A stretch of DNA of 52,961 nucleotides from Candidatus Magasanikbacteria bacterium RIFOXYC2_FULL_40_16 (GTDB taxonomy: Bacteria > Patescibacteriota > Patescibacteriia > Magasanikbacterales > UBA922), in assembly GCA_001783185.1 (NCBI GenBank), contig MFQY01000047.1:1-52961 (forward strand), in the 5' to 3' direction. Numbering within the stretch: position 1 is the first letter of the stretch; the number at the start of each line of letters is the position of its first letter. The notes below the pieces were generated by a model, which did not search any database, was not told the origin of the DNA, and saw only the letters and a list, made by a program, of their open reading frames with translations. Positions 36,778 through 50,622 of this stretch are shown here, in pieces. The position numbers and the translations under genes were made by a program.

Positions 36778-36789
36778 GTGAAAGAATAA

Positions 36790-36822
36790 AAAATTCCCCT
36801 GATTATTTCAGGGGAATTTTTT
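36790..36822 (+). terminator. Intrinsic terminator after rpoC
   Basis: AAAATTCCCCTGA-TTATTT-CAGGGGAATTTT plus a T-run. Confidence 0.65.
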
Positions 36823-36881
36823 GTGGACTTTTTTTAAAAACAAAATTTGGCTGATTTTAGCCATAAATTGGCTTTTTGCTA

Positions 36882-36910
36882 TTGACAAATTCAGAATTTT
36901 ATGTTATAGT
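36882..36910 (+). promoter_or_regulatory. Sigma70-like promoter (extended -10) of the DGR target gene
   Basis: TTGACA, 17-nt spacer, TGTTATAGT, about 165 nt upstream of the ATG at 37075. Confidence 0.5.
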
Positions 36911-37074
36911 AAGCTATTCTTTTAAAGCGTGGAAGGTTTGTAAAATCATATTGGTTGGAGTATTTATGTCGCTTAAATTAGGACATATAAATACTCTCCT
37001 CAATTTTGAGAGAGTCCCGGGCCTCGGGCAGGGGCAAAATACTTTTTGGGCTTTCAGCCCAATAGGAGACAGAG

Positions 37075-37665
37075 ATGGCAAAATATGATGGCTGGACATA
37101 TGGTGAGACCGAGGCGCTTCTCAACATCATCGGAGGCGCGGATGTCGCGCGCAAGGTGCTCCGAGGCGAGAGCAAACTGACTGTTGTGGAGATCGTTCCA
37201 CAACCCCTCCTGACTTTGGCTGGAACCGTCAAGGTTCAACCGGTGAATAAGCTCGGGGTGAACGAGTTTTTCAACGAGAATAACTCGTCGGTGAGAATCT
37301 CCTATGTCGGAGACAACTTCAAGGAGTGGTTCTACGGAAAGGAAGAGGAACAACCGAACGCGAACGAAACCGTCTTGCGTTATCACACGCTCAATCGGCG
37401 TTCGGTGGACGGTCCCATCATCAAGGAACTGGGTGGCGAGGACAAGGTCAAGGTTACTCTCTCCCATGTTGCTGCCCTTATGTTGGAACAGTCCAATGGC
37501 GAGCGGGGTGCGCTCCTGACCAATAGCTACGCGGACATCTTCTATGTTCACGACGTCGCGGTGAACGTGTACTGGCTCGGCTTCGGCTGGTACGTGGTCG
37601 CCTACTCGGTCGGGGATCCGGGTGGGTGGAACGCTGGCGGCCGGGTGTTCTCCTGCGATTCATAA
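37075..37665 (+). CDS. DGR variable (target) protein, C-terminal C-type-lectin-like variable region
   Basis: 196 aa with no signal peptide. The last about 36 codons (..AVNVYWLGFGWYVVAYSVGDPGGWNAGGRVFSCDS) contain the VR. The gene is G+C-rich relative to its flanks. Confidence 0.85.
   Translation: MAKYDGWTYGETEALLNIIGGADVARKVLRGESKLTVVEIVPQPLLTLAGTVKVQPVNKLGVNEFFNENNSSVRISYVGDNFKEWFYGKEEEQPNANETVLRYHTLNRRSVDGPIIKELGGEDKVKVTLSHVAALMLEQSNGERGALLTNSYADIFYVHDVAVNVYWLGFGWYVVAYSVGDPGGWNAGGRVFSCDS
37557..37656 (+). repeat. DGR variable repeat (VR)
   Basis: Gap-free 100-nt match to 38024-38123 with 17 mismatches, all at TR adenines. Coordinates anchored on ORF-track codon arithmetic. Confidence 0.88.
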
Positions 37666-37715
37666 CTTAGGTTCTTGGGCATTTTGCCCTTGACCCTTTG
37701 GCTCTTTGTTACTTT

Positions 37716-37761
37716 GGCCCCCAGAATTTTTTTTCGGAAAAATCTGGGGGCCTGTTTTTTT
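37716..37761 (+). terminator. Intrinsic terminator after the target gene
   Basis: GGCCCCCAGAATTTTTT..AAAAATCTGGGGGCC followed by TGTTTTTTT. Confidence 0.6.
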
Positions 37762-38023
37762 GTGAAAAAATTTATGTTATACTGTTTCGGTAGCCACACA
37801 TTGCTCGGCGGCCACGGCTTCCGTGAGATGGCTTCAGAAAATTTTTTTCGAGAGTCGCGTTGGGTATGCCTCGCGCGAGTGTGTAAAATTTTTTTTTTCA
37901 AAAACAAGAATCGGCGCGAAAAATTAGGGGACTTTTTATGTCCCGAATGATATTCAATCCGAGGAGAATTCCAAGGATAGTGTTTAAAGATGATTTTTCG
38001 CGCGAGAACATTCTCGTGTTGCG

Positions 38024-38123
38024 CGCGGTGAACGTGAACTGGAACGGCAACGGCTGGAACGTGAACGCCAACTCGGTCGAGAATCCGAATGAGTGGAACG
38101 CTGACAACCGGGTGTTCTCCTGC
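38024..38123 (+). repeat. DGR template repeat (TR), non-coding
   Basis: In the VR frame it reads AVNVNWNGNGWNVNANSVENPNEWNADNRVFSC (AAC/AAT-rich) and has 25 adenines. A possible extended -10 promoter (TGTTATACT, about 37775-37783) lies upstream. Confidence 0.88.
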
Positions 38124-38141
38124 CACTGTTGTTTTCTCCCG

Positions 38142-38517
38142 TTATTTAGCGGGAGTTTTGCTCAAAAGGCCTTTCCTCCACCCGCCCAACATGCGGCCGA
38201 TTTCATCCAGCTTTTGCGATAGAGTTATATATTTATCTTTGGGTATAAGTTTGTTTTCCCATGCTAGTTGAAAAAAGAATTTTAAGATATCCATTCGTGA
38301 GATGGTTTTTCCAAGCAGAATTATTTTTTGTTCAGGAGGCAAATAAGCGGCCGTGAAAGTTAATTCCAGTATATCCAAGAAGGTTTGTTCTATTTTTTGG
38401 CCTAAGCCAAAGCGCTCTGTCTTTGGCAAGTTTTTATGAAGCGCGAGCCAGAATTGGTATACTTCTTTTTCCTTTGTAATTACCGTTGGTAGCTGGGGGG
38501 GGGGTTAATTGATTCAT
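38142..38517 (-). CDS. avd: Avd-like accessory protein (four-helix bundle / 23S rRNA IVS protein family), reading frame broken at a C10 tract
   Basis: Track ORF 38142..38429 (..LPKTERFGLGQKIEQTFLDILEL...KYITLSQKLDEIGRMLGGWRKGLLSKTPAK) matches the family. Conserved N-terminal residues (EKEVYQFWLALHKN) continue upstream in the same frame to a TAA at the C10 run (38495-38504). The only ATG (38515-38517) is in another frame. Confidence 0.7.
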
Positions 38518-38524
38518 AATATAT

Positions 38525-39646
38525 ATGAAGGTTAAATTGTTTGATACTTTTAATGATATTGTTAGTATAAAAAATTTGATGGGCGCTTGGAGGGATCTCT
38601 TGAAAGGGAAACAAAATAAAAAGGACATCCAATTTTTCTCCCTCCATTTAATGGATAATATCTTAGCTCTTCATTATGATTTAGTAAACAGAACTTATCA
38701 ACATGGTGGTTATGCCAGTTTTTATATAAATGACCCAAAACGGAGGCACATCCATAAAGCGGATGTCAGGGATAGATTACTGCATCACGCCGTTTACAGA
38801 ATTTTATATCCGTTTTTTGACAAAACATTTATATCGGATTCGTTTTCGTGTCGAAACGGCAAGGGTACGCATAGGGCGGTTAATCAGTTTAGAAAAATGA
38901 CCTGCCGGGCAAGCAAAAATAACACAGCCACTGGTTGGGTTTTGAAATGCGATATTAAAAAGTTTTTCGCGAGTATTGACCATAAGGTTTTAATAAACAT
39001 ACTTAATGAATATATACAGGATAAAGATATTATGTTGTTGCTTGAGAATATTGTTGAAAGTTATATGACTGTTTGTCATTCTCGCCCTGTATCACCATTC
39101 TGTCATTCCCGCGAAGGCAGGAATCCAGTTCACGGGATAAACTCCGGCGGGAATCCAGATGATTGGCGGCTGGATCCCCGTTTTCACGGGGATGACAGCA
39201 TTGATGTTGGCTTGCCGCTTGGCAATTTAACTTCCCAGCTTTTTGCCAATGTTTATATGAATGTTTTTGACCAATGGGTTAAACACTTCTTAAAAGCAAG
39301 ATATTATATCAGATATGCCGACGATTTTGTTTTTCTTTCGCCCGACAGGCAATGGCTGGAAGATATTATCCCCAAGATACAAAAATTTTTATCGGAAAGA
39401 TTAAAATTGACTTTGCATCCAAATAAATTATTTTTGAAAACAATTTATTCAGGCATGGATTTCCTTGGTTGGATAAATTTTCCCGGCCATAGGATACTGC
39501 GCCGTACAACCAAGCGCCGGATGTTGGCCAAAATCAAAAATAATCCAACGCCCGAGGCATTGCAGTCATATCTTGGTTTATTAAAACATGGCAACACACA
39601 CAAAATAAAACAGGAGCTTTTGGGGCAGTATTGGTTGTGGCAGTGA
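38525..39646 (+). CDS. DGR-type reverse transcriptase
   Basis: 373 aa with RT motifs (LLHHAVYRILYP, KCDIKKFFASIDH, YIRYADDFVFLS) and the DGR-diagnostic GLPLGNLTSQLFANVYMN. Confidence 0.9.
   Translation: MKVKLFDTFNDIVSIKNLMGAWRDLLKGKQNKKDIQFFSLHLMDNILALHYDLVNRTYQHGGYASFYINDPKRRHIHKADVRDRLLHHAVYRILYPFFDKTFISDSFSCRNGKGTHRAVNQFRKMTCRASKNNTATGWVLKCDIKKFFASIDHKVLINILNEYIQDKDIMLLLENIVESYMTVCHSRPVSPFCHSREGRNPVHGINSGGNPDDWRLDPRFHGDDSIDVGLPLGNLTSQLFANVYMNVFDQWVKHFLKARYYIRYADDFVFLSPDRQWLEDIIPKIQKFLSERLKLTLHPNKLFLKTIYSGMDFLGWINFPGHRILRRTTKRRMLAKIKNNPTPEALQSYLGLLKHGNTHKIKQELLGQYWLWQ
39068..39202 (+). repeat. Family-C hairpin repeats inserted in frame in the RT gene (about 45 codons)
   Basis: TGTCATTCCCGCGAAGGCAGGAATCCAG and GGATCCCCGTTTTCACGGGGATGACA match intergenic copies at 50540, 51518 and 22181. 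They encode TVCHSRPVSPFCHSREGRNPVHGINSGGNPDDWRLDPRFHGDDSI between RT motif 2 and the LGNLTSQ motif. Confidence 0.65.
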
Positions 39647-50497: not shown

Positions 50498-50622
50498 TGT
50501 CATTGCGAGGAGTCCCAAGACGACGTCGCAATCCCGTCTTGTCATTCCCGTGAAAGCGGGAATCCAGTAATTTAAAATCTAATGCCTAAAACCTAATCCC
50601 TAAATAATCTAAATAAGTCATT
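50498..50622. repeat. Family-B unit followed by the left copy of an about 84-bp direct repeat (family-C hairpin plus CCTAA word tail)
   Basis: TGTCATTGCGAGGAGTCCCAAGACGACGTCGCAATCCC is followed by TTGTCATTCCCGTGAAAGCGGGAATCCAGTAATTTAAAATCTAATGCCTAAAACCTAATCCCTAAATAATCTAAATAAGTCATT (50539-50622). Confidence 0.65.

Follow-up and report, generated by a model that had tools for sequence, protein, structure and literature searches.

A diversity-generating retroelement among the housekeeping genes of a Candidatus Magasanikbacteria genome and the homopolymer tract in its avd gene

Region 36880-39650 of contig MFQY01000047.1, from the genome of Candidatus Magasanikbacteria bacterium RIFOXYC2_FULL_40_16, is best read as a complete chromosomal diversity-generating retroelement (DGR) of the clade found in the Candidate Phyla Radiation (CPR, or Patescibacteria), a reading to which a probability of about 0.93 can be attached. 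Positions are those of the window, that is, the whole stretch of 52,961 nucleotides that was analysed. The DGR cassette sits between rpoB/rpoC and yebC/ruvC, and its gene order is target gene with the variable repeat (VR), template repeat (TR), avd on the opposite strand, and reverse transcriptase (RT). A first-pass annotation of the same DNA had identified a DGR here, and this is borne out by an adenine-only TR/VR pair at the 3′ end of an open reading frame (ORF), a bRT-like RT with LGNLTSQ and YADD motifs, and an Avd homologue; what the annotation overlooked is the avd gene itself, located between TR and RT on the minus strand and with an interrupted frame. Comparison of contigs indicates that the element is currently active, with diversification confined to adenine-templated sites.

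CPR bacteria are the richest known DGR hosts, and Paul et al. 2017 reportedly provided the first survey of their DGRs. The source metagenome-assembled genome (MAG) was obtained from Rifle groundwater (RIFOXYC2_FULL_40) and stems from a data set in which CPR DGRs were surveyed. A set of 80 related loci with RT identities of 51-64% was drawn from GTDB genomes, and 75 of these 80 relatives have a divergent avd immediately upstream of RT; the window DGR is therefore an ordinary member of the known CPR clade, a standard CPR-type element and not an unusual one, which is possibly already catalogued and represents a confirmation, not a discovery. The main interest lies in features that are clade-wide, above all a homopolymer that breaks the frame of avd.

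The repeat pair and its diversification

The VR/TR diagonal was placed by an exhaustive ungapped scan of 37500-37700 against 37950-38180, which yielded one outstanding diagonal at an offset of 467 nt. Along it the two repeats agree at 83 of 100 positions, with 17 mismatches and no indels. Every mismatch falls on an adenine of the TR (17 of its 25 adenines, as nine A>G, seven A>T and one A>C change), whereas the C, G and T positions of the TR are all unchanged in the VR. For 17 randomly placed mismatches to fall exclusively on those 25 adenines the hypergeometric p is 1.6e-13. The VR forms the last 100 nt ahead of the final two codons of the coding sequence (CDS) 37075-37665, and all 17 mismatches affect codon position 1 or 2. 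Extending the repeats by one or two bases on either side produces non-adenine mismatches at once, so that the boundaries given here hold; the homology closes with a GC-rich 3′ end, CCGGGTGTTCTCCTGC, beyond which the flanks diverge completely. When the TR was turned into a pattern with N at every adenine and run over the whole window, the VR and TR were the sole matches (none is expected from shuffled sequence), and there is thus no second VR in the window. The TR lies 367 nt downstream of the VR, and a further 401 nt separate it from the RT start. The first-pass annotation had described an ungapped 100-nt match with 17 mismatches, all on TR adenines, and spacings of about 370 nt and 401 nt; exact pairwise alignment reproduces the former in full, with neither a non-adenine mismatch nor an indel, the measured distances agree with the latter, and the translations that it quoted are correct. 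Relative to other copies of the VR, that of the window has a 15-nt deletion at its 5′ edge, and the homology of the TR with these other copies extends over 109 nt (38015-38123).

Evidence for ongoing diversification comes from other assemblies, in which this exact RT is encoded on 12 contigs. One of these (L091) matches the window at 99.8% identity over 5 kb and differs from it at 11 positions, ten of which lie in the VR, all ten at TR-adenine sites; a second (L092) has seven differences, four of them in the VR and again all four at TR-adenine sites. Outside the VR, these two contigs, which are 99.8-99.9% identical to the window, show just 1-3 single-nucleotide polymorphisms in the remaining ~5 kb. 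A contig carrying rpoC and the target (L007) is 99.2% identical over 4 kb, and its 17 VR differences are likewise all at TR-adenine sites. In a test free of bias from the search pattern, metagenomes were scanned with a pattern based on the 3′ 46 nt of the repeat only, with N at adenine sites. Five contigs were retrieved. Adenines account for every difference from the TR in the 54 nt of their un-anchored 5′ part; over the whole repeat each copy has 14-17 adenine-site differences, to which L006 adds one G>T change in the anchored 3′ end. In a copy from another sample (L004), 19 of 19 mismatches to the TR are at adenines. At the protein level, P0002 is 93% identical to the window target, the aligned differences being confined to the VR. 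The first-pass annotation had proposed to look, by read mapping, for variation confined to adenine-templated sites, and at the contig level the outcome is the one that this test calls for. Since near-identical contigs differ in the VR only at TR-adenine sites, the element is active now on this contig-level evidence. The first-pass statement that it has been active is therefore upheld by L091 and L092, and six further copies (L004-L009), found independently, have their differences from the TR at adenines, the G>T change of L006 apart.

Table 1. Features of the DGR locus, in window coordinates
Feature	Position	Strand	Remarks
Promoter-like site of target gene (putative)	36882..36910	+	TTGACA-17-TATAGT with TG; 11/12 consensus matches
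DGR target gene	37075..37665	+	ORF; 196-aa (amino acid) protein, OGH89435.1 ("hypothetical")
VR	37557..37656	+	100 nt, ungapped against TR; protein residues 162-194
Octamer array	37664..37718	+	about seven ~8-nt units of CTTGG/CTTTG type (also CTCGG); candidate target-recognition element
Intrinsic terminator of target gene	37716..37761	+	10+6 bp hairpin and T run; -15 kcal/mol, z = -5.0
Putative extended -10 promoter for TR RNA	37775..37783	+	TGTTATACT
Structured leader RNA 5′ of TR	37790..38007	+	~230 nt, ends just ahead of TR
TR	38024..38123	+	25 adenines; nine AAC and two AAT codons
Hairpin CTCCCG-N8-CGGGAG with TTTT	38136..38159	+	12 nt after TR; -6.2 kcal/mol, z = -4.3
avd	38142..38517	-	leader ATG 38517-38515, C10 tract, body open from 38501 to stop 38144-38142
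Homopolymer tract	38495..38504	-	C10 on avd strand, G10 on + strand; avd start out of frame
DGR RT	38525..39646	+	373 aa; Pfam RVT_1, E 3.7e-21; LGNLTSQ and YADD motifs
In-frame insertion in RT	39065..39208	+	~42 aa, residues 181-228; palindromic MITE-like repeat in the loop before GLPLGNLTSQ

The avd tract and the reverse transcriptase

The annotated avd ORF (38142-38429, 95 aa) matches the Pfam family bAvd (PF22296) with an E value of 3.5e-12 over profile positions 21-106, and removal of one C from the homopolymer extends it to a 124-aa Avd that matches profile positions 6-106 with an E value of 4.2e-14. The leader of the gene (MNQLTPP...) enters the C10 tract in a frame that needs a +1 shift, and either such a shift or a C9 tract restores Avd; the junction peptide expected for a +1 shift across C10 is MNQLTPPQLPTV.... 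Within the Avd body there is no in-frame start until a TTG, use of which would cost 29 residues including most of helix 1, and no canonical start precedes residue 30. Three additional assemblies break at the tract (two contigs start there and one scaffold has a gap), which is only suggestive. Elsewhere in the window, long G/C runs are limited to a C9 at 1482 and a G8 at 1501 (1482-1508), which could form a hairpin.

The tract is a feature of the clade. A run of C7 to C13 is present at the 5′ end of avd in ~80% of the 80 related cassettes and usually breaks the frame, and among the G/C runs of at least 8 nt in the 822 kb covered by the related loci, 64 of 67 are at this one site (p ~1e-94). The 49 loci that have both a recognizable leader and a tract comprise ten in which the leader is in frame with Avd (20%), 27 that need +1 (55%) and 12 that need -1, and +1 is the commonest requirement (p 0.0014). 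Nine loci lack the tract; here the leader is in frame in seven (binomial p ~0.008), against 10 of 49 with the tract (Fisher p 0.0016), and the two exceptions carry a (CA)n repeat at that place. Counting these two tract-less cases, (CA)n replaces the tract in three lineages. Throughout the relatives the Avd body is intact, and no conserved stop after the tract was found at the loci of the frame survey. Within species the tract length is constant (G10 in 6/6, G9 in 5/5 and G9 in 7/7 assemblies, all needing +1), so that at the consensus level the 18 assemblies of these three species show no variation in length. This comparison used the window RT, P0158 and P0074; P0048 and P0104 were excluded as circular, the called RT ORF running through the tract.

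In relatives RT and avd start on opposite strands of the same conserved 21 nt, a divergent overlap in which ATGAAAATTCAATTGAGTCAT (MKIQLSH) begins the RT and its antisense, ATGACTCAATTGAATTTTCAT (MTQLNFH), is the avd leader. The overlap (MKIQLxH / MxQLNFH) is centred on CAATTG, as at L081 6001-6021 and L113 1201-1221; in the window it has been lost, RT codon 7 being GAT and the avd ATG having moved to 38517. Two related loci, L055 and L058, have RTs that are 95% identical and divergent avd genes, with the similarity breaking at the tract.

Avd is encoded in ~74% of DGRs, and to our knowledge the DGR of phage BPP-1 is the only one in which the need for it has been tested, Avd being essential there. 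Since the VR diversifies although its populations have G10 without exception, full-length Avd is probably produced to some extent. The tract could serve as a contingency locus that is predominantly OFF, or it could cause slippage, either in transcription or, by +1 on CCC-C, on the ribosome; it could also be a feature of the RT 5′-leader, with initiation of Avd downstream of it. The frame bias (55% +1, 20% in frame) means that frameshifting or slippage during expression also fits, and CCC-C is ideal for slippage of tRNA-Pro, yet 12 loci need -1 and ten are in frame. Should the tract act on expression, it would be a stochastic on/off switch or a low-level throttle on a targeted mutator, and it bears on how cells limit the cost of such a mutator. 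No paper linking avd genes of DGRs with homopolymers was found in the literature searched, Paul et al. 2017 being outside the reach of that search.

The RT has as its closest solved relative the Bordetella phage bRT (8ub7, E 3.6e-40), which is matched in two pieces and stands far ahead of group II intron and retron RTs in the PDB, at 1e-15; at least 7967 homologues are found at E <= 1e-60. The in-frame insertion, which resembles a miniature inverted-repeat transposable element (MITE), is fixed in the species, all copies of this species' RT carrying it. Further copies of its repeat core lie at window 50540-50568 and, in inverted orientation, within the corresponding RT loop of L010 (2095-2122) and L052 (1848-1876). 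The loop before GLPLGNLTSQ is a hot spot for in-frame palindromic MITE-like insertions (with translations such as LDSRFRGND and SREGRNPV), L043 being a further example, and different RTs carry the same repeat in either orientation; the loop length among relatives ranges from 6 to ~110 aa. Given that the VR varies among contigs with this RT, the insertion is apparently tolerated.

Template RNA, target mark and target modules

Between the target gene and the TR lies a predicted structured leader RNA, preceded by a promoter-like motif that is conserved at the same place in relatives as TGnTATACT or TGnTATAAT. The 3′ domain of the leader (37909-38007) consists of a 12-bp closing helix that encloses two hairpins. 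In an RNAalifold analysis of seven relatives, 25 of 46 leader pairs are accompanied by compensatory changes, and with a covariance model of the 3′ domain (R1, 22 pairs) 70 of the 80 relatives give a single match each, always on the RT strand. In the R1 alignment 97.6% of cells are paired, compared with 33-50% when the partners are slid, and double changes occur in 20 of the 22 pairs (410 cells); the alignment is model-fitted, and the margin over the slid controls is large. An A-only TR/VR pair comes right after the element in 62 of 69 relatives. The window has no match in Rfam 15 at the gathering threshold, and within 37650-38600 no RT-associated Rfam family is found at E <= 1, the only matches there being two that are weak and unrelated.

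Downstream of the TR, the hairpin at 38136-38155 is the sole structure conserved in eight relatives, with three of its seven pairs covarying, and may be either a terminator of the TR RNA or an Avd-binding stem-loop. Synthesis of cDNA in the Bordetella phage needs a 140-nt structured spacer 3′ of the TR that starts with an Avd-binding stem-loop (bioRxiv 10.1101/2023.10.23.563531). Of such a spacer, this one hairpin is all that is conserved here, and nothing more was found in the antisense-avd region. Because the covarying structure is 5′ of the TR and only one hairpin is conserved 3′ of it, the CPR template RNA appears to be organized differently from that of BPP-1, with the bulk of the structure at the 5′ side and a terminal hairpin at the 3′ side. 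The leader thus bears on the question of what RNA elements take over from the Bordetella spacer in cassettes with an inverted avd.

The 60 nt on the 3′ side of the VR (37657-37716) are 100% identical in all active target copies, the coding parts of which are 77-83% identical. This segment holds the octamer array. Across 46 VR flanks, that of the window included, CTTGG-like motifs occur 4.1 times per 70 nt compared with 0.6 times in shuffled sequence, with a modal spacing of 7-8 nt, and arrays of the octamer type recur in relatives with different sequences. The first-pass annotation had pointed to a GGGC-ATTTT-GCCC hairpin at the place where target-recognition hairpins of DGRs usually lie; it is present at 37677-37689, 21 nt after the VR, but its support is modest (-4.8 kcal/mol, z = -2.1) and it is part of the larger repeat array. 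Of 62 relatives, 37 have a simple hairpin after the VR where 21 would be expected, and these hairpins vary in sequence, as GGGAC-ACTT-GTCCC and GTCCC-CTT-GGGAC illustrate. As the hairpin on its own is weak, the array would be the better candidate for target recognition, and its invariance bears on how remote targets are recognized. The array is followed by the terminator of the target gene, in which variants are compensatory (CCCCCAG/CTGGGGG and CCCTTAG/CTAGGGG) and which marks the end of a portable target module.

This module is made up of the 3′ two-thirds of the target gene, the VR, the 60-nt flank and the terminator hairpin. It recurs in other genomic contexts, and the homology always stops at window 37757-37760. 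One copy, target B, lies in the order ftsH, target B, SLFN/AlbA_2, rpsB and tsf (L125, L008), and another, target C, in the order dsbA, target C, SLFN and rpsB (L004, L009); both are diversified at TR-adenine sites only, and on the sequence evidence the same TR fits these remote copies as well. A third copy is found downstream of fusA (P0016 and L001-L003). Here 14 adenine and 14 non-adenine mismatches to the TR have accumulated, identically in three MAGs, and the GGGC...GCCC hairpin of the 3′ flank is lost; P0016 is a decayed paralogue and serves as a natural control. Its locus corresponds to L001 6527-7231 (contig MFQS01000017.1, same species), and adjoining it is a 189-aa gene (L001 7458-8027) that is target-like only in an N-terminal MxKYDxxTxxETxALLNxIGG module. 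Paralogue B was considered as the cassette-adjacent copy and rejected, since SLFN/AlbA_2, rpsB and tsf come after it. With an active copy next to the cassette, active remote copies and a decayed paralogue, the locus offers a clean case with natural controls.

The promoter-like site of the target gene comes after the rpoC terminator (36786-36824). The database entry OGH89435.1, from a Candidatus Magasanikbacteria MAG, matches the encoded protein at 100% identity. No Pfam domain was detected in this protein or in 101 family members, and no sequence match in the PDB was obtained even with a profile at E <= 10. There is no predicted membrane segment (maximum KD19 hydropathy 1.29), so that cytoplasmic and secreted-soluble locations both fit. 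A word-indexed search with 29 matches had made the family look rare, a view overturned by an exhaustive profile search that recovered 3303 clusters at 50% identity (E <= 1e-3), 645 of them at E <= 1e-30. One family member, P0165 (926 aa), has five tandem copies of the target domain. The first 40 residues are a separate module common to unrelated small proteins (P0028, P0029, and the L001 7458-8027 product). Over the target gene (window 37000-37750) G+C is 53-55%, compared with ~31-44% in flanking intergenic DNA, avd and RT; avoidance of A outside the variable codons and transfer are both possible explanations. In the closely related cassettes L058, L063 and L085 a second, unrelated target/VR family is present, with a TR translation of ...FFVANVYLNSDGRLNVNVNKFDNDNVWNAENRNRIVVPKL.

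An AlphaFold 2 (AF2) model of the target was built from a 128-sequence alignment, an earlier model from 29 sequences having been discarded (predicted local distance difference test, pLDDT, 64.6; meaningless Foldseek matches). The model has a pLDDT of 88.7 and a predicted template modelling score (pTM) of 0.78, and in it an alpha/beta domain comes after a helical hairpin at the N-terminus (residues 9-29). On it the VR would occupy a beta-hairpin (161-167/172-178) and the last strand (190-194), with the variable residues alternating along the strands. Foldseek searches of the PDB and BFVD returned nothing at E <= 1e-3, the best match having E 0.31 and TM 0.31; a C-type-lectin or formylglycine-generating enzyme (FGE)-sulfatase-like fold of the Mtd, TvpA and AvpA type is thus without support for this target, which could in principle be a very remote C-type-lectin variant. 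A family with thousands of clusters that is unannotated and has a confident model without structural relatives may provide a third kind of variable scaffold for DGRs, next to the C-type lectin and immunoglobulin folds.

Alternative readings and related systems

Taken together, these features suggest a joint reading in which CPR-DGR hypermutation is gated by a slippery avd repeat, the template RNA is structured at its 5′ side, an octamer array marks the target, and the target family is very large and has no structural relative. As a whole this reading is tentative, its odds being a little short of even. In the mechanism proposed under the main reading as a CPR-type DGR, the element would first express, from an extended -10 promoter near 37775, a non-coding RNA of ~370 nt comprising the structured leader, the TR and the 3′ hairpin with its U run, as conservation and covariation suggest. 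RT and Avd would then copy the TR into cDNA, misincorporating nucleotides opposite template adenines. Such misincorporation by RT and Avd is established for the Bordetella phage DGR, and for the window DGR it is the A-only mismatch pattern that points to it. In replacing the VR, the cDNA would recode up to 14 codons of the beta-hairpin and C-terminal strand, at the 3′ end of the target gene; variation within the population shows the replacement, and the placement on the fold is that of the AF2 model. Probably the invariant 60 nt beyond the VR, with the CTTGG-like octamers and the small hairpin, mark the target DNA, in which case the same TR could diversify copies of the target module elsewhere in the genome. 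Full-length Avd would be made only after a slip in C10, whether by a change in DNA length, RNA polymerase slippage or a +1 ribosomal shift, and mutagenesis would hence probably be rare or gated.

An ordinary partial gene duplication, or a chance similarity whose mismatches fall on adenines by accident, would account for the TR as a non-coding copy of a coding segment, and for nothing else. The hypergeometric probability given above, the RT and avd that adjoin the repeat pair, and the recurrence of the A-only pattern in seven further VR copies and in 62 related loci leave this explanation with next to no chance of being right; it is ruled out by the A-only alignment, the un-anchored metagenome test and the VR differences among near-identical contigs. 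Some points do weigh against a complete and working element. The G10 tract puts the avd leader and body in different frames in 6/6 independent assemblies; the 42-aa RT insertion is a gap in the alignment with bRT; either defect could inactivate the element. Activity was judged from differences between assembled contigs of different samples, at the contig level, and where the transcript ends, how cDNA synthesis is primed and what the octamer array does are all inferred. The sequence that follows rpoC and the target also varies among assemblies: it is the DGR cassette and yebC in two (the window and L099), and a variant terminator, a 329-aa membrane-like gene and a type II secretion system ATPase in L007 and L098. 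That the locus is a fossil, dead through the frameshift at C10 and the repeat in the RT, with historical TR/VR differences, is nevertheless very improbable. Contigs with an identical RT and an identical G10 have VRs that differ only at TR-adenine sites, and RT loop length varies in many relatives that have A-only TR/VR pairs. An intact Avd body and RT ORF are present in the window and in ~75 relatives, the frame break being shared by most of the latter, so that a conserved design fits better than decay.

The varying junction raises a different question, namely whether the link between the rpoC-target and the cassette is an assembly chimera, the VR of the cassette coming from another paralogue and the rpoC-linked copy being a trans target. 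The paralogous targets have ~300 identical nt in common (37414-37720), which would permit strain rearrangement or chimeric assembly, and many cassette contigs begin inside the VR or target gene. The window and L099 are independent and come from different assemblers, and still show the same arrangement, and paralogue B has ftsH and SLFN-rpsB as its neighbours instead of the cassette; a chimera is accordingly rather unlikely, and either way the VR lies 367 nt upstream of the TR in every case (L090-L092, L099). A somewhat stronger contender, doubtful on present evidence, is that the avd homopolymer is not an expression switch, and is instead an artefact of assembly or sequencing or an element of the RT mRNA 5′-leader, or that Avd starts after the tract and its leader is not translated at all. 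Since the leader MxQLNFH and the conserved RT N-terminus MKIQLxH are exact antisense counterparts, conservation of the leader could be a by-product; the tract length does not vary within the three species; Pfam bAvd coverage starts only past the tract; and a TTG shortly follows the tract at some loci (for example L118). Yet equal lengths in 5-7 independent assemblies per species disfavour random error, and the window has no canonical start between the tract and body residue 30. The concentration of long G/C runs at this site and the contrast in leader frame between loci with and without the tract also favour a role in expression, and the replacement by (CA)n in three lineages makes it look as though slippage, rather than a G-specific RNA element, is selected.

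The closest comparison is with other CPR DGRs, among which the "B3" architecture TR-(avd)-RT accounts for 90% (Wu et al. 2018, PMC5758913) and which form clade 2 of Roux et al. 2021, with targets that typically lack recognizable domains (PMC8144416). The window element agrees with these in host group, origin from a Rifle groundwater MAG, gene order and inverted avd, in its small target without a recognizable domain or membrane segment, in its AAC-rich TR, and in its chromosomal position among housekeeping genes; it differs in nothing essential. The literature searched yielded no mention of the avd tract, of the structured leader ahead of the TR, of the octamer array that follows the VR or of insertions in the RT loop, nor of the large target family whose confident model has no structural match. 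With the BPP-1 DGR (mtd-avd-TR-brt) it has in common the adenine-specific mutagenesis of a C-terminal VR, a homologous RT, an Avd homologue, a GC-rich 3′ end of the VR/TR homology followed by a hairpin (here a modestly supported one), and, directly downstream of the TR, a stem-loop at the position of the Avd-binding stem-loop of BPP-1 (bioRxiv 10.1101/2023.10.23.563531). It differs in that avd is inverted and lies between TR and RT, the host is cellular and not a phage, the target is not a phage tail fibre, and the target model has no match to C-type lectin folds.

Structured non-coding RNAs associated with RTs have been described as motifs RT-1 to RT-19, with RT-10 being the TR-RT spacer of BPP-1 (Weinberg et al. 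2017, PMC5737381). The leader described here is likewise physically tied to a DGR RT and TR, but is located upstream of the TR and not between TR and RT. The avd tract, finally, resembles those of phase-variable genes of Campylobacter, Neisseria, Helicobacter and Bordetella in being a G/C run of 8-13 nt near the 5′ end of a coding region, in having a length that ranges from 7 to 13 among relatives and sets the frame, with all three frames represented, and in being replaced by a dinucleotide repeat in three lineages. It differs from them in that there is no length polymorphism within species (18/18 assemblies, at the consensus level), and in that the gene under its control would be the cofactor of a mutagenic RT and not a surface structure.

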